Virus record (IMG/VR): IMGVR_UViG_3300024981_000016 | Reading direction: 5' to 3' (one strand) | DNA length: 52,616 nucleotides | Source of the DNA: a virus | Shown here: positions 1 to 52,616 of the stretch, piece after piece | How positions within the stretch are numbered: the first letter of the stretch is position 1 | Layout of the letters: the number at the start of each line of letters is the position of its first letter | The notes under the pieces: generated by a model | Told to the model about the DNA's origin: nothing | Seen by the model: only the letters and a program-made list of their open reading frames with translations | The model's database searches: none | Program-made: the position numbers and the translations under genes

Positions 1-127
1 CGCCTCAGGGGAAACGGTAGACTGGCCGCGATGCTCGCTTTTCAAGTCCAAGCAGCCCGAGCAGTCCGAGCAGTCCGAGCAGTCCGAGCAGTACGAGCAG
101 CGCGAGCAGCCCGAGCAGCCCGAGCAG
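1..127. repeat. Terminal overlap, copy 1 (identical to 52490-52616)
   Basis: Base-by-base identity of the first and last 127 nt of the window. Confidence 0.97.
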
Positions 128-441
128 TACGAGCAGCCCGAGCAGTCCGAGCAGTCCGAGCAGTCCGAGCAGTACGAGCAGCGCGAGCAGCCCGAGCAGC
201 CCGAGCAGTACGAGCAGCCCGAGCAGCCCGAGCAGCGCGAGCAGTCCGAGCAGCCCGAGCAGTCCGAGCAGTACGAGCAGCGCGAGCAGCCCGAGCAGCC
301 CGAGCAGCCCGAGCAGTACGAGCAGTTGGTACAATTGTCGCAGTTCTTGAGGCTATCGAGCGCCTTCTGCGCGGCTTCCTGTGACCCGAAATACTCTACG
401 GAGCACTTGTTGCCTCGGTCGTCGTTCAGCCAGTTCGTCAT
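1..441 (-). CDS. Cys-Ser-X tripeptide-repeat protein, 5' part. The gene wraps the circular junction and continues from 52489 down to 52175; 251 codons in total.
   Basis: ATG at 441-439 with GAGGA 7 nt upstream. The frame stays open through the whole 9-bp array and is in phase with ORF 52175..52540 once the ends are joined. N-terminus MTNWLNDDRGNKCSVEYFGSQEAAQKALDSLKNCDNCTNCSYCSGCS... Confidence 0.75.
   Translation of the reverse strand, partial: MTNWLNDDRGNKCSVEYFGSQEAAQKALDSLKNCDNCTNCSYCSGCSGCSGCSRCSYCSDCSGCSDCSRCSGCSGCSYCSGCSGCSRCSYCSDCSDCSDCSGCSYCSGCSGCSRCSYCSDCSDCSDCSGCLDLKSEHRGQSTVSPEA
50..328. repeat. Tandem array of 31 units of 9 bp, GAGCAGNNC on the plus strand (NN = TC, TA, CG, CC)
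   Basis: Counted units: degenerate first unit 50-58, then 29 perfect-core units 59-319, then degenerate last unit 320-328. Units 2-10 (59-139) and 11-19 (140-220) are an exact 81-bp duplication. Confidence 0.97.
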
Positions 442-4371: not shown

Positions 4372-4676
4372 GCATCACCCGCGTCCGCGCTGGCTCATTT
4401 TCGTTCCAATGCGTGAATGGTTGCGGGCCGGCATCTGGCAGGGACACGGCCTGCCGGCCCGCTGTCAGCCGGTACGGTCGGCTGATCTGCAATAGGTTCG
4501 GGCCTCTCGCCCGGGGTCTTTTTCGCGCGTCGAATGCTTTCCAGGGCTCTGCGCGCGGCCTGTCCGATTTGTTCCGGTCCTTTCTGTCTGCGGTTCGTCA
4601 TGAACGAAACCATGACGGAAGGATCATCGGAAATGTCCGAAATTCGAGTGGAGAAATCCGAAATGTTGAGCGTTGA
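4368..4676 (+). CDS. Doubtful hypothetical ORF
   Basis: GTGA coupling and higher third-position GC than the antisense ORF 4395..4820, but the product is Arg-rich and low-complexity. Confidence 0.3.
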   Translation: MSITRVRAGSFSFQCVNGCGPASGRDTACRPAVSRYGRLICNRFGPLARGLFRASNAFQGSARGLSDLFRSFLSAVRHERNHDGRIIGNVRNSSGEIRNVER

Positions 4677-5010
4677 GTTTGCGCAGTACGCTCTACGCGC
4701 CCATGTCGCCCCGGCATCGCTTGGGTCAGTAAAGACACGGCTGCGCCATGCCGCCCGGAGGCTCAAATGGACAGCGAACCGTACCAAGGACACTTGGTAC
4801 GCCGACCCCCGCATCTCCATTAGCGCCGACGAAATCCGTCAAATCGAAGAACTCACGGGACTGCGCTATGGCCGCGAAGAACTCCGCTCCGTCGAGCAAC
4901 TCATCAGCCAAGCCGACGCTCTCCTTATGGGCACGGACGAGGATTTTCATCGGCCGTTCCTTACTGCGCTCCGCGCGGTGGCTCGCCTTGCTGATCGCAC
5001 CAGAACTTAA
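4633..5010 (+). CDS. Hypothetical protein
   Basis: ORF track 4534..5010. ATG 4633 has GGAAGGA upstream; alternative starts at 4600 and 4663. Confidence 0.6.
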   Translation: MSEIRVEKSEMLSVEFAQYALRAHVAPASLGSVKTRLRHAARRLKWTANRTKDTWYADPRISISADEIRQIEELTGLRYGREELRSVEQLISQADALLMGTDEDFHRPFLTALRAVARLADRTRT

Positions 5011-8141: not shown

Positions 8142-10295
8142 ATGACGAGGCGAACCTTGACGGTACAGGCCCCCGACGATTTTTCAAGCGCAGCCCAATG
8201 GGCTGACGCTTATCGGGCGCTTGGCCTCGCCGTGATTCCGGCAAGAGGGCAAGAAAAAATCCCGCTGGGGAAATGGCAGGAATTTCAAAACGGCATACCG
8301 CAGGCCGTTCATGATCGCTGGTATGGAGAAAGCGGAGATAACCGGTCCAATTACCGAATGGGCTTCCTGACCGGCGCCGCTTCCATTGGCGACGGGTGGA
8401 AACTTCTGCTGATCGACCTCGATGAGAAAGGAGCCGTATCGGGCTCCGGGACCTGGGACCAATGGATTGGTGAAAACGAGCTCGGGTGCGACCCCGAGAC
8501 ATGGCGCGCAAGAACGGGAGGCGGCGGACAGCATATCTATTTCAAATACCCCGCCCATCTCCACATCCGCAATACGCAAGAGACAATCGCTGGGATTGAT
8601 GTGCGTGCTGAGGGCGGCTTCGTCATCACGCCCCCATCACGCCACGTCAGCGGCAAGCAATACGCGTGGCTCTATTCTCCCTTCGAAACCGACCTCGCCG
8701 AAGCGCCTGGCTGGCTGCTGGAAAAGGTTGGAGCTTCGGAAGCACCTTTCAAAACGACTACGGCACCAAAGGACAGGCTGACCCTCCCTGAGCAGGCAAC
8801 CGACGCCTGGGGGCATATCGTCGACGGTCGCGACGCTTACATGCGCGACCTGGTGTGGGCCTCCGTGGTGGACTGGTACCGGGAATGTCCGATCCCGCCG
8901 GGCGATGCCGAAAGCGAACGCAAGATGCTGGAGGCCTTCGCCACCTATGAACGCAAAGTGCGCCCACAGGACCCTTCCCTGACGCTTGAAGGCGAGAGCA
9001 GAGGGATTTCTGCATTCCGCGCCAAATGGGCTTATGCCATGCGGCAATGGGACGGGAAGGTTTCCGAGGCCGCCAAACGGCCGGGGGCGATTAAGCAGCC
9101 GGCATATGATTTCAGCGTCTCGCATGGCGCTCCGTCATCTTCTCTGGATCTTGTGGCAACACCATTCAAATGGATTGACCCGGCGCTGATCCCGCCACGA
9201 CGTTTTATATATGGCCGGCACTATATCCGACAGTTTGTCTCGACAACTGTAGCACCTGGTGGCGTCGGGAAATCATCCCTCGGCATTGTCGAGGCGCTAT
9301 CGATTGCAAGCGGGAAGCCGTTGCTGGGGGTCACCCCGGGCGAACGTGGGCGAGTGTGGTTATTCAACGGCGAAGACCCAGTCGAGGAACTCCAGCGCCG
9401 GATAATGGCCAGTACGTTGCTATACCGATTGTCTGAATCCGACGTATCGGGAAACCTGTTCATGGACAGCGGTCGCGACACTCCAATTGTCATCGCGGAG
9501 CAGACCAGGGATGGCGCAAAAATCCTTACGCCAATCGTTGAAGCGATTACCAAGACCATACGCGATAACCAGATCGACGTTCTCATTGTCGATCCCTTCG
9601 TATCCAGCCACCGGGTTTCAGAAAACGACAACAATGCCATTGAGCGGGTTGCCAAGACGTGGGCGACAATCGCCGGAGCCACCAACTGCTCCATCGATCT
9701 GGTGCACCACAGCAGAAAGACGGGAGGCGGTGAAGTCACCGTCGAAGACGGGCGAGGCGCTTCCGCTCTTTTGTCCGCAGCCCGGTCCGCTCGTGTGCTC
9801 AACCAGATGACACAGGAAGAGGGCGAAAAGGCCGGTGTCGAAAACCATCGACTGTTTTTCCGGGTGGACAACGGGAAAGCGAACCTAGCCCCGCCTACAT
9901 CGGCGGCGGAGTGGTATCATCTTAAATCCGTGCCCCTCGGCAATGGCGAGATGTCGAAATCCTTCGGGGTCAACGTCGGAGAGGGAGATAGCGTCGGCGT
10001 AGTCTCTCCGTGGTCGTGGCCTGATCCTTTTAGCGACATCAGGCTTGAAGACCTTCGCCGTGTCCAGCAGGCCGTTTCTTCTGGAGGCCCGTGGAGAGAG
10101 AACTCCCAAGCTAACAATTGGGTTGGAATACCTGTCGCATCAGCTTTGAAACTGGACCCAAAGAACAAGGCCAACATTAGGAAAATAGTCGCGCTGATGG
10201 ACATGTGGTTGCGGTCCGGAGCCTTCGTCAGAGTTACAGGGAAGGATGCGAAAAGGATGGAAAAAATGTTCATAGAGGTTGGCGAATGGGCATGA
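8142..10295 (+). CDS. Bifunctional primase-polymerase (prim-pol) plus RepA/DnaB-like ATPase (helicase)
   Basis: LLIDLDEKG, GGQHIYFKYP and IDVRAEGGFVITPPSRH are prim-pol motifs. Walker A VAPGGVGKSS and a RecA-like core lie downstream. Confidence 0.85.
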   Translation: MTRRTLTVQAPDDFSSAAQWADAYRALGLAVIPARGQEKIPLGKWQEFQNGIPQAVHDRWYGESGDNRSNYRMGFLTGAASIGDGWKLLLIDLDEKGAVSGSGTWDQWIGENELGCDPETWRARTGGGGQHIYFKYPAHLHIRNTQETIAGIDVRAEGGFVITPPSRHVSGKQYAWLYSPFETDLAEAPGWLLEKVGASEAPFKTTTAPKDRLTLPEQATDAWGHIVDGRDAYMRDLVWASVVDWYRECPIPPGDAESERKMLEAFATYERKVRPQDPSLTLEGESRGISAFRAKWAYAMRQWDGKVSEAAKRPGAIKQPAYDFSVSHGAPSSSLDLVATPFKWIDPALIPPRRFIYGRHYIRQFVSTTVAPGGVGKSSLGIVEALSIASGKPLLGVTPGERGRVWLFNGEDPVEELQRRIMASTLLYRLSESDVSGNLFMDSGRDTPIVIAEQTRDGAKILTPIVEAITKTIRDNQIDVLIVDPFVSSHRVSENDNNAIERVAKTWATIAGATNCSIDLVHHSRKTGGGEVTVEDGRGASALLSAARSARVLNQMTQEEGEKAGVENHRLFFRVDNGKANLAPPTSAAEWYHLKSVPLGNGEMSKSFGVNVGEGDSVGVVSPWSWPDPFSDIRLEDLRRVQQAVSSGGPWRENSQANNWVGIPVASALKLDPKNKANIRKIVALMDMWLRSGAFVRVTGKDAKRMEKMFIEVGEWA

Positions 10296-10304
10296 ACCGA
10301 CAGA

Positions 10305-10435
10305 TTGCCGCACCTGTAAAAAGTGCGGTGCGGCAAGTGCGGCAAGTGCGGCGCGCAGCCCCGCCGCACCACCCCTTTATATGGGGTGTGGGGTGGGGCG
10401 CGGCACGGCAAAGGGCAAAAAGTACGGTGCGGCAA
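10305..10435. promoter_or_regulatory. Putative replication origin: GTGCGGCAA iterons plus an AT-rich core flanked by G/C-rich inverted arms
   Basis: Inverted TTGCCGCAC at 10305-10313. Tandem GTGCGGCAA at 10328-10336 and 10337-10345, a variant at 10346-10354, and a direct copy at 10427-10435. TTTATAT at 10376-10382 sits between CACCACCCC and GGGGTGTGG. Confidence 0.5.
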
Positions 10436-10461
10436 AATCAATCTGGCAGCGGAGTTTCAAA

Positions 10462-11010
10462 ATGAGCAGGAAGCCGATTTCTTCAAAGCTGAGATACGCA
10501 ATCCTGGCAAGGGACGGGTTCGCTTGCCAGTGCTGTGGCGCAAAGGCTCCCGACACAACGCTCCATGTTGACCATATCGTTCCTGTGTCTAGGGGCGGGA
10601 CTGATCGGGAAGACAATCTCAGAGCAGTTTGCGTCACGTGCAATCTTGGCAAAAGCGATGCGGAAACCTCCGTCGTGAGAATCCCGACCTTCAAAGGACC
10701 GATTGTCACTGCGGACAATGAGGTTGTCGTCAGAGGCGAACCACTTAGCGAGCCGATCTTCTGGATTGGCCGTCAGTGGGCTGTAACGGCTTACGGAATT
10801 GAGTGCCGAGACGGAACGTATTTCATCGAAGCTAGTCGTCTTTGGGAAGGGACTGTTCCCGACCAAGATGGGCACACCTGGCCGTGGGAGAGGCACATGG
10901 CCGAGAAGGAATGGGTCGATATGACCGACTTCCGGGCCGCCATTGCTTGGGCACGTGAGCATTTCAACTATCTCCGCAAAAACAGGGCGAGAGCCATCCA
11001 TGGCCTATGA
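10462..11010 (+). CDS. HNH endonuclease with a C-terminal extension
   Basis: CQCCGAKAPDTTLHVDHIVPVSRGGTDREDNLRAVCVTCNLGK. ATG 10462. Confidence 0.8.
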   Translation: MSRKPISSKLRYAILARDGFACQCCGAKAPDTTLHVDHIVPVSRGGTDREDNLRAVCVTCNLGKSDAETSVVRIPTFKGPIVTADNEVVVRGEPLSEPIFWIGRQWAVTAYGIECRDGTYFIEASRLWEGTVPDQDGHTWPWERHMAEKEWVDMTDFRAAIAWAREHFNYLRKNRARAIHGL

Positions 11011-43760: not shown

Positions 43761-44108
43761 TCACGCTCCCTTCGGCTGGGGTGCGGCGGGGAGGGCGTCG
43801 AGCGGAAGCCAGCCCGTAGGTGCTACGGCAAGGTCAGTGTCACCGTTAAACCAAGCGAACCACCAGCCGGGCACCCAATATCCCGAGCCATATTCGTCTG
43901 TGTTTTCGTGCCGACCGGGCACCCACACCGCGATGCAAACGCCTTTACCGTCGAGGAAGTCGCCGCCGTCAGCATGCGCGCCGTATTTGGTCAGCTTGCC
44001 TTCATCTTCGGAATAATACGGGTCGCTCTCGCTATCGTAGCAGACAAGGATTTTCGTCCCGTCCCTCGGCGCGCTCTCCATCGATTTCCATTCACCGCAC
44101 ATCGGCAT
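43761..44108 (-). CDS. Trp-rich hypothetical phage protein
   Basis: ORF track. Contains WKSMESAPRDGTKILV... Confidence 0.6.
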   Translation of the reverse strand: MPMCGEWKSMESAPRDGTKILVCYDSESDPYYSEDEGKLTKYGAHADGGDFLDGKGVCIAVWVPGRHENTDEYGSGYWVPGWWFAWFNGDTDLAVAPTGWLPLDALPAAPQPKGA

Positions 44109-44643
44109 AAGCCCTATCGTTTAGAATTCGGCCGATTGAGCGCTTGCTGACGCCGAATTTGGTTGCGATTGACTGATGGGATGAGCCGCCGCGTAGGTAT
44201 TCGGCGCGGATTTCCCTAACCTCATCGTCTGTGAGTTTAGCTACTGGCGGCCGTTTCCCTTTTGGGCTGCGCTGTCGGCCTAAAAGCCGCATGTAATCAA
44301 GATTTTCCTGCTGGGTGCACCATTCTAGGTTGTCCGCAGCAGGGTTGGATGGGTTGCAGTCCAGATGATTGACATTCGGCTTCATCAATGGATTCGGAAC
44401 AAACGCCTCTGCCACCAGCCTGTGCACCATTGGCGTCGATCTCGTGCCTATGCCAGCGCGAAGCGTGACGACGAGATAGCCGTTGTGGCCTATCCTTGGC
44501 GTGAGAAGGCGGCCTGGGACTGAATAAAACCTGCCGCCGCCATTCGGAGCCAGACGGTCTATGCTCCGGACCCTGCCCATGTTGCTGACCTCGTAAGCTG
44601 GCCAGCCGCGTATTGGTTTCCACTGCTCGGTCATTTGCGCCAT
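44092..44643 (-). CDS. NUMOD4/HNH_3 homing-type endonuclease with C-terminal HTH
   Basis: WKPIRGWPAYEVSNMGRVRS (NUMOD4-like), VNHLDCNPSNPAADNLEWCTQQEN (HNH_3) and LTDDEVREIRAEY...SHQSIATKFGVSKRSIGRI (HTH). Confidence 0.85.
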   Translation of the reverse strand: MAQMTEQWKPIRGWPAYEVSNMGRVRSIDRLAPNGGGRFYSVPGRLLTPRIGHNGYLVVTLRAGIGTRSTPMVHRLVAEAFVPNPLMKPNVNHLDCNPSNPAADNLEWCTQQENLDYMRLLGRQRSPKGKRPPVAKLTDDEVREIRAEYLRGGSSHQSIATKFGVSKRSIGRILNDRAYADVR

Positions 44644-44843: not shown

Positions 44844-45779
44844 TTATTGAGGGGCACGACGGAAGCCCTCCCGGAGCGCGGAGACCTCAATATCGCAGCG
44901 TGGAGGGAGGGCGACTTCAGGAGCGGCGCACTGCCCGGGCAGGGCTGGCGAGGCATCGATGTAGGCAGCTATGACTTCCGCCGCGACTTGCGGGACGATG
45001 GCATTGCCGTAGGCGCACAATCTTCCCACGCGGCCGGGAACCCCATTAGCCAGCAGACCCAAGCCGGGTTTAGTGCGCCATTGAGCACGGTACTTCCGAC
45101 CGCCGCGCGAAGTTTCTCCCTCGATCGCGTTCCACCCCACTTGCAGAGGGCCGCTCCGCCAGTGTCCGTTATCGCTGTCGGGGTTGGCCAAAGCTCCGCC
45201 ACGCGCTGAGGGAGAGATTTCCCGGTGTCGTGAGGCCGCGGGGGCTTGTTGCCCTTGTTCCCGTCCATCGCCTGAGGTGTCGGCCACAATCCAGATACGG
45301 TCTCTTCGATGAGGCGCATCGACGGCACAAGCCGGAACAATGGCCGCCCGCCCGGAGTAGTTGATGCTCTCCAAGTCAGAGAGCACTCCGTCGAGCCAAT
45401 ACTTTCCAACCGCTGCGCTAACCTGCTCTCCCATCCAGGCGGGAGGACGGCGTGCTTCGATGAGGCGGAACTGCTCCGGCCAGAGGTGTCGCTCGTCTTC
45501 CTCTCCTTCGCCTTTCCCCGCGACGGAGAAGGGCTGGCAGGGACATGAACCTGTCCAAAGAGGTCGATCGTCTGGCCATCCTGCCAGGCGCGCTGCAAGG
45601 CTCCATCCGCCGATTCCGGCAAAGAAATGGCATTGCGTGTAGCCTCGGAGGTCGTCAGGCTGGACATCCACTATGCTCCTTTCGTCTACGTCGCCAGGAG
45701 CTATCTCCCCTGCCGCAATGAGATTGCGCAGCCACGCTGCGGCATATGGGTTGAACTCGTTGTAGTAAGCCCCACTCAT
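44844..45779 (-). CDS. dcm: DNA (cytosine-5) methyltransferase, orphan
   Basis: FAGIGG (motif I), SCPCQPFS (motif IV), HRRDRIW (motif VIII-like) and YGNAIVPQVA (motif X). No adjacent restriction endonuclease. Confidence 0.85.
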   Translation of the reverse strand: MSGAYYNEFNPYAAAWLRNLIAAGEIAPGDVDERSIVDVQPDDLRGYTQCHFFAGIGGWSLAARLAGWPDDRPLWTGSCPCQPFSVAGKGEGEEDERHLWPEQFRLIEARRPPAWMGEQVSAAVGKYWLDGVLSDLESINYSGRAAIVPACAVDAPHRRDRIWIVADTSGDGREQGQQAPAASRHREISPSARGGALANPDSDNGHWRSGPLQVGWNAIEGETSRGGRKYRAQWRTKPGLGLLANGVPGRVGRLCAYGNAIVPQVAAEVIAAYIDASPALPGQCAAPEVALPPRCDIEVSALREGFRRAPQ

Positions 45780-46015
45780 GCCGCCACCCTCATTTGACGA
45801 ATCAGGTTGAGCCCGCCAGGGTTCGCACCGGGTTTTGGGGAGGGGACATGTTTAACGGCGAACTTGGCGGCGGTGAGGGTGTCATGCAGGATGTCGTAAG
45901 CGCGGCCAGTGTGTTCCATGCGCAGCGCGTTGATGGCCTCGACAACTGCCTTGTCGATAGGGTCGCTCGTAACCCCCTGCGCCGGGTTGGCGGGGGTGGT
46001 GGGGGAGTGGGTCAT
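45776..46015 (-). CDS. Hypothetical protein
   Basis: ORF track 45776..46072. ATG 46015 forms an ATGA overlap with the upstream stop. Confidence 0.55.
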   Translation of the reverse strand: MTHSPTTPANPAQGVTSDPIDKAVVEAINALRMEHTGRAYDILHDTLTAAKFAVKHVPSPKPGANPGGLNLIRQMRVAA

Positions 46016-46536
46016 GCTGCTGCCCTCCGATTGCGCAAAGCCAAAATCGCGAAGGCGGCGAGGCTCGCCCATGCTTTGCCAAGCACCTGGCCCTCAATGA
46101 AAGAAAGAGAGCCGAACGCGAGCCAAAGAAAGGCAGCGCTGTCGATGATCGATCCGACCATGCCGCTCGCCAGAACTGCCAAGCCAAGACGCTTTTCTCG
46201 GAGCGGCGTGTAGACGGCGAGATCGGCCAGCTCCGCAAGGACGAAAGCGGCTACCGATGCCAGCACGAGCGCCGGCGGTGCGACCAGCCATGAAGCTGCT
46301 GCGCCAATGGCAATGGCCGCCAGCGCCGAACGGAGACCGCCGGCCTCATGAACCATATCCCGCAATACCATCGCCGCCCCGATCATTAGGACACCGGAAG
46401 GAGCGGAGAAGCCGAAGCCGACCGGAATGACGCATGGCCCAGATGGCACGCATGATCCTATGTGGCCGATCATCCAGTTGGCGGCCGGTACGGTGGCGGC
46501 AAAGGCGGCGATGAGAGCAGGCGTCTTAGGCTGCAT
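46012..46536 (-). CDS. yhhQ: YhhQ/VUT (DUF165)-family membrane transporter, candidate preQ0/preQ1 importer
   Basis: Multi-TM protein. Segments line up by eye with E. coli YhhQ: ANW vs SNY, MVLRDMVHEAGG vs LATDLTVRIFG, AAFVLAELADLAVYTPLRE vs MAYALGQILDVHVFNRLRQ, GSIIDSAAFLWLAF vs GNVSDTLAFFFIAF. Confidence 0.65.
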   Translation of the reverse strand: MQPKTPALIAAFAATVPAANWMIGHIGSCVPSGPCVIPVGFGFSAPSGVLMIGAAMVLRDMVHEAGGLRSALAAIAIGAAASWLVAPPALVLASVAAFVLAELADLAVYTPLREKRLGLAVLASGMVGSIIDSAAFLWLAFGSLSFIEGQVLGKAWASLAAFAILALRNRRAAA

Positions 46537-47218
46537 TGAACAGGTCTCCTAAATCGTAACGGCCGGCAGGCTTCGGCGGTGCGTTTACCCGATCGAGACG
46601 TTCGGCCATGCGGCCAGGCATGTCCTCTCGGTCTTTGAAATTTCGGGCCACGTTGATGCTGTCCACGCGCGACAAAAACCACCAATTTCCGGCCTCGTTC
46701 ATCATCCGAAGGCCATGGATTTCAGCCGGGTCCGGTGTGGCGGCGACCACTTCGCCGACTTCGCGCATTCGCGCTTTCCAAGCAGCCGATCCCACTTGCC
46801 AATATGCCCCGCTCGATCCGAGGCAGACTACGTGCCATTCACGCAGAAGCTCGGCGAGGTATTCAAGCGGGAGGCCAAGATGCCAGACCGGTGCGCCGCG
46901 CTTTCGAGAGAAAGGCCATGTGGCAACTAAGGCGCGCTGCTGCTCTACCGTGCCGTCGATAACGTCGGGAATAATGGCGAGATGCGGCGCAACCAGCATC
47001 GGTTCAAGCCACGCGTAGTATGCATCGACATCGAGTTCGCCGCCCTGCTGATGGATGGTGAAAGCGCCATTGTCGAAAAGAATCGACTGCATCGCACGCA
47101 GGCAATATTCAACCTGCCGATCCCGCTTCGTCGCGTATGAGATGCAGACGTGCTTGCCGGCAAGGTCCAATAACATGATCTCTGGCGTCAGTGGCAGTCC
47201 ATGATAGTGGATCGTCAC
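46526..47218 (-). CDS. dpdA: Candidate DpdA-like (TGT-fold) DNA transglycosylase
   Basis: SILFDNGAFT, AIIPDVIDG, VVCLGSSG and EIHGLRMM are spaced like strand-end motifs of the tRNA-guanine transglycosylase barrel. GTG start 47218 overlaps the upstream stop. Adjacent to the YhhQ-like gene. Confidence 0.5.
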   Translation of the reverse strand: MTIHYHGLPLTPEIMLLDLAGKHVCISYATKRDRQVEYCLRAMQSILFDNGAFTIHQQGGELDVDAYYAWLEPMLVAPHLAIIPDVIDGTVEQQRALVATWPFSRKRGAPVWHLGLPLEYLAELLREWHVVCLGSSGAYWQVGSAAWKARMREVGEVVAATPDPAEIHGLRMMNEAGNWWFLSRVDSINVARNFKDREDMPGRMAERLDRVNAPPKPAGRYDLGDLFNAA

Positions 47219-47421
47219 TTCTCACCCCCATCCCCGCCCTGCGCGAGGGAGGCGAGGGCGGCCTCGTGGACCGCTTCAAGCGCCGCAACAAGCTTTCGGA
47301 CGTGGTTGCGCAGGTCCTCCACGCCGCTGATGGTCGGCCGCTTACCAGCCCGCAGCCGCGCCGACACTTCGTTGGCTACCCGTAGAGAGGATTCAATAAG
47401 CAGCTTGTTGTAGTCCATCAC
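47215..47421 (-). CDS. Hypothetical protein ending ...LAQGGDGGEK
   Basis: ORF track. Confidence 0.55.
   Translation of the reverse strand: MMDYNKLLIESSLRVANEVSARLRAGKRPTISGVEDLRNHVRKLVAALEAVHEAALASLAQGGDGGEK
47225..47253. repeat. 29-bp gene-junction repeat, copy 1
   Basis: CCCCCATCCCCGCCCTGCGCGAGGGAGGC. Differs at one base from 47767-47795. Confidence 0.9.
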
Positions 47422-48092: not shown

Positions 48093-48474
48093 CGCCCGTC
48101 TCCTTCTGGCTGAGGGCGGCGTTGGCCTTGTCGAGAATGTCGGAGACGCAATGCTTGCCGAGATGCGCCCATTCGCCAGTAAAGGCGATTTGTGGAGCCA
48201 TCGTCCTGGCGCCAGCCTGTAGCGCTCCTGCGGTCAGTAGCAGCGCTGCCCGCAGTCCTTCGCACTCTGCGCGGGAGACGTCTCGCTCGACCGTCAGTCT
48301 AGATATGTCGCGGGCGCGCTGTTCGTCGGCCTCAAGCAACTCCGCGATCCGCTTGTCGCGCTCGGATAGGTTTGACGCCAGGACGTATTCCACTCCCTCC
48401 TCGAAGGGCCCCCGCTGCCATTTTCGGATGTTGCCGTTCTCGGCGAACTGTATCCAAATGCGGTCATGCGTCAT
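48082..48474 (-). CDS. Hypothetical protein
   Basis: ORF track. Confidence 0.6.
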   Translation of the reverse strand: MTHDRIWIQFAENGNIRKWQRGPFEEGVEYVLASNLSERDKRIAELLEADEQRARDISRLTVERDVSRAECEGLRAALLLTAGALQAGARTMAPQIAFTGEWAHLGKHCVSDILDKANAALSQKETGDAA

Positions 48475-48862
48475 GGCGAGCCTCGAATAGCGGCTTCGGC
48501 GCGAGCGGTTTGCGCTCTGCGCGGGGTTTCGGTGATTTTGGGCGGGCGGCGATCTTGGCCTTTGGTCGCGTTTTCATGCCCATGAACTGCTGCCGAACGG
48601 TCTTGGCCGCTGTCGGCGTGTCACGGTTCGCCGTTTTCCACGCATGGCATTTCGGACACACGGCCCGGCAGTTTTCGAGGCTGCTATCCTTGGAATTGGC
48701 ATCCAGGATCAGGTGATCGTACTCGACGCCGGCTCCAAGGCTGCGGGTGCAGCGCTGGCCTTCGGGAAGGCCGTACCAAGGGCCAGCCGCCTCACAGATG
48801 AGGCCCGAGCGCTTGAGCGCCTGCTTCCGTGTCTTTGTGGCGAACTCTCGGCGGTCGGCCAT
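48464..48862 (-). CDS. HNH endonuclease
   Basis: CEAAG...VEYDHLILDANSKDSSLENCRAVCPKCHAWKT. ATG 48862. Confidence 0.8.
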   Translation of the reverse strand: MADRREFATKTRKQALKRSGLICEAAGPWYGLPEGQRCTRSLGAGVEYDHLILDANSKDSSLENCRAVCPKCHAWKTANRDTPTAAKTVRQQFMGMKTRPKAKIAARPKSPKPRAERKPLAPKPLFEARHDA

Positions 48863-49263
48863 TATGCAGCCCTCGCCAGCGAGAATGGCAGCCGCGAAGA
48901 CAGAACCCACAGGTGATACATGTCGGCCGCATCAACGAGTTCGGAAGCGGGCGGCATCACCGAGACGGCGGTGCTTTCCGCGCCGCAAATCTCGTTCTTG
49001 ATCCGCTGCATGTCGCGCCATGGCGGCTCAAGGTTTGAGGCTGTCCGGATCGCGAGGTGGATGATTTCCTCACCGTTGGCGTCCTCAAATGGCCTGATCA
49101 AGACGGCATAGAGATCATTCGCCCAAGCCTCACGCACCTGTTTCAGCCAGCCGAGGCCCGGGCCGCCGTTTGGCAATGGCGTCTTGCGCCACTCGCCCCA
49201 ATTGCCTTTCAAGGCGCGCCGCTCGAATGCCTTGGCAGCGCGCATGTCGCGACGGTTCGCCAT
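48862..49263 (-). CDS. Hypothetical phage protein
   Basis: ORF track 48862..49287. ATG 49263 forms a TGATG overlap. Confidence 0.6.
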   Translation of the reverse strand: MANRRDMRAAKAFERRALKGNWGEWRKTPLPNGGPGLGWLKQVREAWANDLYAVLIRPFEDANGEEIIHLAIRTASNLEPPWRDMQRIKNEICGAESTAVSVMPPASELVDAADMYHLWVLSSRLPFSLARAA

Positions 49264-52175: not shown

Positions 52176-52616
52176 CACTCTGCCACCTCGACTTCAACGC
52201 CAGCGAGCTTCGCCATGTCGGCGAGCGCGTCCTTGTCGCTGTCGTAAAACCGGGCCGGATTGATGGGCGATCCGCTTTCGCGATAGATCAGCATCGCCGC
52301 CAGTTCGGTGTTGAAGAACCGTTCGAGCTTCTGGCCGGCTTCGCCGGCAAGCGTGACGACCCAGCCGGCGCGGCAATGCGTCGTTCCGCAGGTATGCCAG
52401 GCGTCCATCCTGAGCGCGCCGGGTTGAATGGCCGCCTCATAGACCTTCCGGTTGATATCCTCGATCTTCGGGATGATCGGCGCTCCGAGCGCCTCAGGGG
52501 AAACGGTAGACTGGCCGCGATGCTCGCTTTTCAAGTCCAAGCAGCCCGAGCAGTCCGAGCAGTCCGAGCAGTCCGAGCAGTACGAGCAGCGCGAGCAGCC
52601 CGAGCAGCCCGAGCAG
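52175..52616 (-). CDS. Cys-Ser-X tripeptide-repeat protein, 3' part (C-terminal globular domain; 52490-52616 duplicates 1-127)
   Basis: ORF 52175..52540 has no ATG. Its frame is continuous with the frame opened by ATG 441 after circularisation. C-domain ...LRMDAWHTCGTTHCRAGWVVTLAGEAGQKLERFFNTELAAMLIYRES... Confidence 0.75.
   Translation of the reverse strand, partial: CSGCSGCSRCSYCSDCSDCSDCSGCLDLKSEHRGQSTVSPEALGAPIIPKIEDINRKVYEAAIQPGALRMDAWHTCGTTHCRAGWVVTLAGEAGQKLERFFNTELAAMLIYRESGSPINPARFYDSDKDALADMAKLAGVEVEVAE
52490..52616. repeat. Terminal overlap, copy 2 (identical to 1-127); includes the first units of the 9-bp array
   Basis: Base-by-base identity with 1-127. Confidence 0.97.

Follow-up and report, generated by a model that had tools for sequence, protein, structure and literature searches.

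How could a phage place 7-deazaguanine bases in its DNA when it carries no genes for making them? Modifications of this kind shield phages from restriction enzymes and Cas9, and the question of their supply is raised by a virus sequence of 52,616 nucleotides, IMG/VR record IMGVR_UViG_3300024981_000016 (the window, by which we mean this whole stretch). Between positions 44,844 and 47,218 its leftward genes encode a 230-aa protein that resembles the DpdA enzymes of phages, a 174-aa membrane protein of the VUT family of queuosine precursor transporters (QPTR; also YhhQ, DUF165), and a 311-aa C5 cytosine DNA methyltransferase (MTase). A first-pass annotation, made from the sequence alone, had joined the three into a two-layer anti-restriction design, in which 7-deazaguanine is stacked with 5-methylcytosine (5mC). 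We consider it probable, at roughly 0.6, that the DpdA-like gene and the Vut gene form a salvage-type cassette for 7-deazaguanine DNA modification, in which precursor from the host is supplemented by import.

The DpdA-like protein and its candidate transporter partner

The DpdA-like gene lies at 46526..47218 on the minus strand. Its 230-aa product matches PHROG 887, 'queuine tRNA-ribosyltransferase' (1.4e-37), and the same PHROG also takes in the DpdA of phage CAjan (gp35, 8.2e-96). Compared with CAjan DpdA by hhalign, the protein reached a probability of 91% when 46 homologs made up the profile; an alignment of 158 sequences, assembled from the related loci that were retrieved, raised this to 96.1% (E 3.5e-9). 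The hhalign alignment places four motifs of the 230-aa family in register with those of CAjan DpdA: FDNGAF with LDSGAFS, WHLG with FHFG, GSSG with IGGM and VDS with CDS. Across the 158 sequences D49, D85, H113 and G134 are conserved in 100% and D186 in 99%, and D49, H113, G134 and D186 pair with LDSGAF, FHFG, IGG and CDS of CAjan. In bDpdA, the bacterial enzyme, mutagenesis and structure have identified D95 with F99, D130, H181, G206-207 and D256 as essential residues (PMC10164549); the order and spacing of D49/D85/H113/G134/D186 resemble those of D95/D130/H181/G206-207/D256, in a mapping made by motif and spacing only.

The AlphaFold2 model of the 230-aa protein (predicted local distance difference test, pLDDT, 89; predicted template modelling score, pTM, 0.85) consists of eight alternating strands and helices, that is, a TIM barrel. 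In BFVD, Foldseek found 23 matches at E<=1e-3, down to 4e-7, many of them named queuine tRNA-ribosyltransferase. The structural Zn site, made up of a Cys cluster and a His, is absent: the 44 residues that follow D186 contain zero Cys, and the only conserved Cys residues of the family are C25 and C132. From profiles and motifs we assign the 230-aa protein to the phage DpdA family, as a candidate for DNA guanine transglycosylase activity.

The gene that follows, at 46012..46536 on the minus strand, encodes the 174-aa protein. It matches Pfam Vut_1 (PF02592) with 3.9e-11 and 44 bits, where the cutoff is 27.2, in a partial match that runs from residue 87 to 159 and covers profile positions 65-130 of 152; PF02592 is carried by all 120 of 120 homologs among the matches listed. 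The protein falls in PHROG 4899 (7e-41), as does CAjan YhhQ (gp41, 'putative preQ0 transporter'), and the two share 37% identity (E 1e-15). Its identity to gp26 of the Sinorhizobium phage phiLM21 is 64%, and the hidden Markov model (HMM) of its family reaches the core of E. coli YhhQ (E 6e-9). The score with the PRK11212 equivalog was 24.6 against a cutoff of 252. Several hydrophobic 19-mers between residues 35 and 147, found with the crude Kyte-Doolittle method, indicate a polytopic membrane protein; the sequence as a whole is hydrophobic. The Vut_1 score and the homology to the YhhQ proteins of CAjan and E. coli bear out the YhhQ/DUF165-type identity given in the first-pass annotation. Since every substrate so far characterised in the VUT family is a queuosine precursor (PMC11130926), we regard the 174-aa protein as a candidate importer of 7-deazaguanine precursors.

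Searching IMG/VR with the family alignment brought up at least 580 relatives of the DpdA-like protein. The best 80 of these at least 580 IMG/VR loci and 2 deposited phages made up a viral set of 82, and 80 loci from GTDB genomes a bacterial set, 162 in total; adjacency in the viral set was taken from the coordinates of the open reading frames (ORFs). A Vut ORF was present in 72 of the 82 viral loci, and in 71 of the 82 it lay on the same strand within ~520 bp, usually abutting; at least one of the 10 viral loci that have no Vut ORF ends at a contig edge. Among the bacterial-genome loci a Vut gene was present in 35 of 80, adjacent and on the same strand in every case (35/35). The prophage copies in GTDB come from Rhizobiales, Burkholderiales, Pseudomonas, Solirubrobacterales, Acidobacteriota and others. 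The pairing of DpdA with Vut is real and recurrent. Moreover, phiLM21 has the same Vut clade (the 64% identity mentioned above) beside a very divergent DpdA, which argues for functional linkage, not shared inheritance.

Prophage copies of the short DpdA-like gene were also seen far beyond Proteobacteria, on contigs of Solirubrobacterales, Acidobacteriota, Planctomycetota and Patescibacteria. In the metagenome-assembled genomes of Solirubrobacterales the Vut gene stands consistently upstream of the DpdA-like gene, not downstream. Vut homologs of ~39-41% identity occur at ~36.1-36.8 kb in the Mycobacterium phages StevieRay, GreaseLightnin, Ksquared, Bunnies and Bhagsy. M. smegmatis, the host of these phages, has no queuosine or preQ0 (7-cyano-7-deazaguanine) genes (Hutinet 2019, PMC6884629), thus if a DpdA were present in them, uptake would be the sole possible source of precursor.

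In the window phage itself, a Pfam scan of the ~93 ORFs of the whole window detected no FolE/GTP_cyclohydroI, PTPS/QueD, QueC, Radical_SAM/QueE or QueF, and tblastn of the window with the four enzymes of CAjan, namely FolE, QueD, QueE and QueC, gave a best E of 0.36. The first and last 127 bases of the window are identical (1-127 = 52490-52616). This exact end overlap indicates that the window is a complete, circularly closed phage genome of ~52.49 kb, and the genome being complete, the absence of preQ0 biosynthesis genes applies genome-wide. The first-pass statement that FolE, QueD, QueE and QueC homologs are lacking is thereby upheld. In the flanks of the related loci the Que-gene searches used single CAjan sequences as queries and were of limited sensitivity.

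That modification would have to use the host queuosine pathway or salvage, as the first-pass annotation stated, is an obvious inference; Hutinet et al. 2019 had already proposed the same, host supply or uptake, for phages with DpdA as their only 7-deazaguanine gene, and had noted phage homologs of YhhQ (PMC6884629). Host supply has precedents. In E. coli the DpdA of phage 9g, acting alone, puts preQ0 of the host into DNA, at 0.03-0.3% of G (PMC6884629), and folE and queC deletion mutants of CAjan retain modification from host preQ0 at a level ~12-fold lower (PMC7544227); deletion of dpdA abolishes the modified nucleoside, dPreQ0 (PMC7544227; PMC6884629). Genomes of Rhizobium etli encode the full queuosine (Q) pathway (Supplementary Data 3, PMC6884629).

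Proposed salvage-type modification and its alternatives

In the reading that we favour, which follows the analogy of DpdA/TGT, the short TIM-barrel enzyme would remove guanine from duplex phage DNA after replication, with D186 serving as the nucleophile, D49 as the general acid/base, and D85 and H113 reading the edge of the base. In place of the guanine it would insert a 7-deazaguanine base, probably preQ0. The phage itself makes none, so this base would be drawn from the host queuosine pool and topped up through the co-translated phage transporter, which would work as an importer. The downstream C5-MTase would add 5mC independently. The level of modification and any benefit against restriction belong to the inferred part of this scheme as well.

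A number of results weigh against the scheme. Searches of Pfam (PF01702) and NCBIfam with the 230-aa protein gave no match at E<=1; phmmer and the family HMM, run against all PDB sequences, returned chance matches only (FRIGIDA, a TetR regulator, a helicase); and hhalign against the single sequence of E. coli Tgt was not significant, with E 0.07-0.15 for the 46- and 158-sequence alignments. The blindness of Pfam is uninformative, because the validated CAjan DpdA is likewise without a Pfam match. In the hhalign alignment with CAjan DpdA the invariant D85 sits 3 residues off the Asp of VLDG. The best Foldseek match in PDB was Cap10 (9ntn; E 4.7e-3, TMq 0.54-0.56, ~10% identity), a TGT-family enzyme of a type IV cyclic-oligonucleotide-based antiphage signalling system (CBASS) remodelled for protein deazaguanylation (bioRxiv 10.1101/2025.04.06.647259). 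There was no TGT or bDpdA chain in the PDB top 50, and generic TIM barrels scored similarly. As no such chain is among the top fold matches and the match to Cap10 is weak, we do not file the protein as a canonical TGT. The first-pass reading as a TGT-fold/DpdA-like transglycosylase therefore holds for the DpdA family (PHROG 887 and the 96.1% hhalign match) and fails for the canonical TGT profile (PF01702, E. coli Tgt). The structure comparison with TGT and DpdA that it had recommended was similarly divided: it yielded a TIM barrel and matches to viral DpdA-type models, and, from PDB, the weak match to Cap10 in place of TGT or bDpdA.

In addition, the 230-aa protein falls short of CAjan DpdA by ~75 aa and is missing ~70 PHROG profile positions at the C-terminal end, thus DNA binding by it cannot be assumed. 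For the transporter, the score with TIGR00697 'queuosine precursor transporter' (44 bits) was under the cutoff of 50.95, and the specificity of QPTR differs by member, some taking preQ0/preQ1 and others queuine (PMC11130926). Deletion of yhhQ in CAjan had no effect on modification (PMC7544227), and of the DpdA-only phages analysed by liquid chromatography with tandem mass spectrometry (n=2), Orion was unmodified and 7-11 had 7-amido-7-deazaguanine (ADG) as dADG at ~0.02% of G (PMC6884629). With values of this order, and with the CAjan yhhQ deletion being without effect, the protective modification envisaged in the first-pass annotation is not supported.

Site avoidance in the phage also speaks against the scheme. 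CTGCAG is strongly avoided in the whole window, with 0 sites observed against 16.5 +/- 4.4 expected, and so is GANTC, the CcrM site of Alphaproteobacteria, with 63 observed against 267 +/- 16 expected. Relative to mononucleotide expectation, again in the whole window, GGATCC occurs 2 times against 17 expected, and GGWCC, CCWGG and GTAC each occur at ~0.4 of the expected number. The avoidance pattern agrees with an alphaproteobacterial host and with restriction pressure that is ongoing; the scarcity of CTGCAG and GANTC suggests that the phage DNA is apparently without broad (blanket) protection.

Other explanations have to be considered in the light of these results. It is conceivable that the cassette tunes the 7-deazaguanine/queuosine economy of the host, at the level of tRNA or of the free base pool, for instance in favour of phage-gene translation, and that DNA modification is nil or incidental. 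The 0-0.02% modified G of the DpdA-only phages assayed (PMC6884629) and the continued avoidance of restriction-type palindromes by the phage are in line with this; phages that have preQ0 genes and no DpdA were proposed to raise tRNA Q (Hutinet 2019, PMC6884629), and bacterial QPTR members do serve tRNA-Q salvage (PMC11130926). We nevertheless find such a role unlikely. The homology of the protein is to DNA-acting phage DpdA, with none detectable to tRNA TGT, and an enzyme of 230 aa has no extra domain for tRNA recognition. The likely hosts, moreover, already have Tgt and a complete Q pathway, and DpdA is encoded by every phage known to have 7-deazaguanine in its DNA (PMC10516641). An enzyme acting on DNA could, on the other hand, insert a different base (preQ1, queuine, 7-carboxy-7-deazaguanine (CDG)/ADG or one that is not a 7-deazaguanine), set by the transporter, which would make for a salvage-only modification chemically distinct from the known DpdA1 products. 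The inserted base varies among DpdA subfamilies (PMC10516641), the DpdA-only phage 7-11 had dADG rather than dPreQ0 (PMC6884629), and the two specificities of QPTR proteins, preQ0/preQ1 and queuine (PMC11130926), leave room for such a choice; the short Vut clade is also a separate PHROG of unknown function and scores under the cutoff of the YhhQ equivalog. Nothing speaks positively for a different substrate, however, the base-reading Asp, Asp, His and Gly are those conserved in preQ0-inserting DpdA, and CAjan, which has the same Vut PHROG, contains dPreQ0, so that a different base seems to us improbable.

A more sceptical interpretation holds that the 230-aa protein is a TIM barrel without transglycosylase activity that was lumped with DpdA by PHROG, and that Vut imports an unrelated vitamin-like compound. 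This would account for the lack of significant matches to the Pfam and NCBIfam TGT models, to PDB sequences and to E. coli Tgt by hhalign, and for the PDB fold matches being mostly unrelated TIM barrels. It would have to explain away, however, that hhalign with CAjan DpdA is significant, with the catalytic motifs in register and the residues invariant in 158 sequences, and that the VUT substrates characterised so far are confined to queuosine precursors (PMC11130926); the missing Pfam match, as noted, is shared by a validated DpdA. We regard this interpretation as quite improbable. Least credible of all appears to us the idea that the protein is a Cap10-like nucleobase-protein conjugator, or a decoy or antagonist acting, e.g., against type IV CBASS. 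Cap10 does top the PDB fold matches (9ntn, E 4.7e-3), and both proteins are compact TGT-like barrels. At ~10% identity, and with generic TIM barrels scoring about as well, this match is weak, and phage DpdA is linked to the protein far more strongly, by sequence and by profile; a QueC-like Cap9 partner and a CD-NTase are both absent from the genome in Pfam scans, and the protein has a base transporter as its conserved partner in place of a protein substrate.

Salvage-type DNA modification is thus the reading that we retain. A stronger version of it, which we put forward only tentatively and hold to be rather doubtful, is that DpdA proteins of the short clade (~226-230 aa), together with the short QPTR that abuts them, make up a distinct and widespread salvage-only cassette, in which the transporter would be required and the base for the phage DNA would be scavenged from the surroundings or from microbes nearby.

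The phages without a precursor pathway are the largest class of DpdA-encoding phages. If the linked transporter supplies the base, DpdA-only phages would be dependent on queuosine precursors from the environment or the host. Were this true, micronutrient exchange in soil and rhizosphere would be tied to phage-host arms races, and it would be understandable why little or no modification was found in the two DpdA-only phages that were assayed from rich laboratory culture. The value of the window lies in a corrected annotation and in a compact two-gene candidate cassette from a complete genome.

The methyltransferase, the gene string and the genome

The C5-MTase gene (44844..45779, minus strand) is the last gene in the coupled string. 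Its 311-aa product matches Pfam DNA_methylase (PF00145) with 1.3e-18 and 68 bits (cutoff 22) and PHROG 363 over its full length (1.1e-80), and its best PDB sequence match is M.HhaI (5.5e-7, motifs IV-VIII). The translation shows FFAGIGG, SCPCQPFS, HRRDR and GNAIVP. The Dcm-type methyltransferase with motifs I, IV, VIII and X of the first-pass annotation is thus confirmed by PF00145, PHROG 363 and the motifs themselves; with TIGR00675 dcm the protein scores 43 bits, under the cutoff of 100.65. The N-terminus of the MTase is atypical: an E-x-N-P...N segment (motif II/III-like) precedes FFAGIGG, and PCQPFS follows only ~25 residues later. The full-length match to PHROG 363 implies that this layout is common in phage enzymes.

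The neighbours of the MTase gene are a 79-aa ORF and, downstream, a NUMOD4/HNH_3 homing-type endonuclease gene, which does not encode a restriction enzyme. General Pfam scans found no type II restriction endonuclease family, with the qualification that such enzymes are often invisible to profiles and that no dedicated restriction-modification or PADLOC scan was made. We also considered the MTase as a conserved third component of the cassette and ruled this out: only 10 of the 162 loci had a C5-MTase homolog close to the DpdA-like gene. The C5-MTase is a neighbour that stands outside the conserved cassette. The two-layer design of 7-deazaguanine and 5mC is accordingly not conserved, and in phiLM21 the neighbouring MTase is unrelated. 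In these phages such MTases generally stand upstream of replication genes (PMC5537653).

The three genes and the small ORF between the second and the third exist as the first-pass annotation had described them, both in the ORF list and in independent gene calls; what had to be changed is the length of the small ORF. Its 98-aa version (start 46072) was replaced by one of 79 aa at 45776..46015 on the minus strand, which is most likely the correct one: its ATG at 46015 forms an ATGA overlap with the Vut stop, and independent gene calls on near-identical metagenomic contigs gave proteins of 230, 174, 79 and 311 aa. The 79-aa ORF had no match in Pfam and PHROG searches and is absent from the related loci, near-identical genomes excepted. 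Directly upstream of the DpdA-like gene the ORF list has a 68-aa ORF at 47215..47421 (minus strand), called as 67 aa on independent near-identical contigs, for which Pfam and PHROG searches likewise gave no match. The 68-aa ORF and the DpdA-like gene meet at GTGA (GTG start), the DpdA-like and Vut genes overlap by 11 nt, and the junctions Vut/79-aa ORF and 79-aa ORF/MTase are both ATGA. These overlapping junctions indicate that the five genes, from the 68-aa ORF to the MTase, are translationally coupled.

Near-identical contigs of 52.3-52.6 kb, which represent the same phage, come from several independent metagenomes. According to Pfam scans the genome encodes a P22-type portal, a capsid protein, a GH108 lysin, an integrase and a Prim-Pol/AAA_25 primase-helicase, gene content that identifies a temperate tailed phage. 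We propose that the DpdA-like and Vut pair belongs to the early leftward genes, and that the host is of Hyphomicrobiales type. A nucleotide search of the phage collection returned nothing but fragments of 54-78 nt, all within the MTase gene, thus a close deposited relative is absent from that collection.

At least four genes for HNH-type endonucleases are present, at 10279-11010(+), 44092-44643(-) and 48464-48910(-) and, as an HNH_3+AP2 ORF, between 13 and 38 kb. The NUMOD4/HNH_3 gene beside the MTase varies among otherwise near-identical genomes (162 vs 180 aa, plus an additional 60-aa ORF), as is expected of a mobile homing endonuclease. At the assembly junction (window 51-325) there is a 9-bp tandem repeat, AGCAGCCCG, with 30.6 copies and 89% matches. 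The AGCAGCCCG array falls within an ORF, 5-334(-), in which G+C makes up 94% of the first codon positions; the array would code for a tripeptide-repeat protein or else be a non-coding array. The 158-aa ORF at 4534-5010(+) was considered as a second barrel enzyme and rejected, its score with PF05114 (MbnB/TglH/ChrH) being 19.7 bits, below the cutoff of 25. It also has a sub-threshold YdaS_toxin match; most likely it encodes a small helix-turn-helix protein, and the MbnB match is probably spurious.

Comparison with known systems

It is instructive to compare the window with the known systems closest to it. The 230-aa protein shares with bDpdA of Salmonella Montevideo the TIM-barrel transglycosylase logic and similarly spaced equivalents of D95 (with F99 four residues further on), D130, H181, G206-G207 and D256. 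bDpdA, however, requires the ATPase DpdB, retains the structural Zn site, as do TGTs, and has four insertions (PMC10164549), whereas the window has a much smaller protein without a Zn motif, and no DpdB, DpdC or restriction module. The preQ0/preQ1 importer of E. coli, YhhQ (COG1738, PF02592), belongs to the same Pfam family as the window Vut and has 221 aa compared with 174.

In CAjan the DpdA is in PHROG 887 and the YhhQ in PHROG 4899, and its DpdA, like that of the window, has neither a Pfam TGT match nor a Cys-cluster Zn motif. CAjan differs from the window as follows: it has a complete preQ0 pathway (FolE, QueD, QueE, QueC) and ~32% of its G is modified (PMC6884629), its DpdA (gp35) has 306 aa with a C-terminal extension that the window protein lacks, and its yhhQ (gp41) is several genes away from dpdA and dispensable (PMC7544227). 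In lacking biosynthesis genes the window phage resembles the DpdA-only group of Hutinet et al. 2019, which comprises 76 phages including SfI, BTP1, SPN3UB, SEN1, 7-11 and Orion (PMC6884629). With the proteins of SfI, BTP1, SPN3UB and SEN1, all listed there as DpdA-only (PMC6884629), the window protein shares 33-40% identity. These enterobacterial relatives differ from the window in having no Vut neighbour; the genes beside theirs are annotated DUF1317 or Ead/Ea22.

The first-pass annotation had held the combination of importer and transglycosylase to be at most sparsely described, which is an overstatement, since the 76 DpdA-only phages were described in 2019 and adjacent DpdA-YhhQ pairs were tabulated with them (PMC6884629). 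Supplementary Data 1 of that study lists adjacent DpdA and YhhQ as the sole 7-deazaguanine genes in the Clostridium phage CDKM15, the halophage eHP-6 and the Sinorhizobium phage phiLM21 (PMC6884629). Our literature search, of limited coverage, turned up no later description of the DpdA-QPTR pairing. The gene layout was thus already catalogued in 2019, and what this work adds is modest and quantitative, namely the pairing frequencies.

The closest counterpart of the window locus is that of phiLM21 (NC_029046, 3123-5300; gp25-gp26-gp27). Two of its proteins are different: its DpdA has 274 aa, is not picked up by BLAST from the window protein (E 0.16) and reaches only E 0.006-0.035 by hhalign, and its MTase is an N6-methyladenine (m6A) GANTC enzyme, not a C5-MTase. 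The arrangement, however, is the same, with DpdA followed by Vut and then by a DNA MTase, all upstream of the replication genes, and both are temperate rhizobial phages without preQ0 genes.

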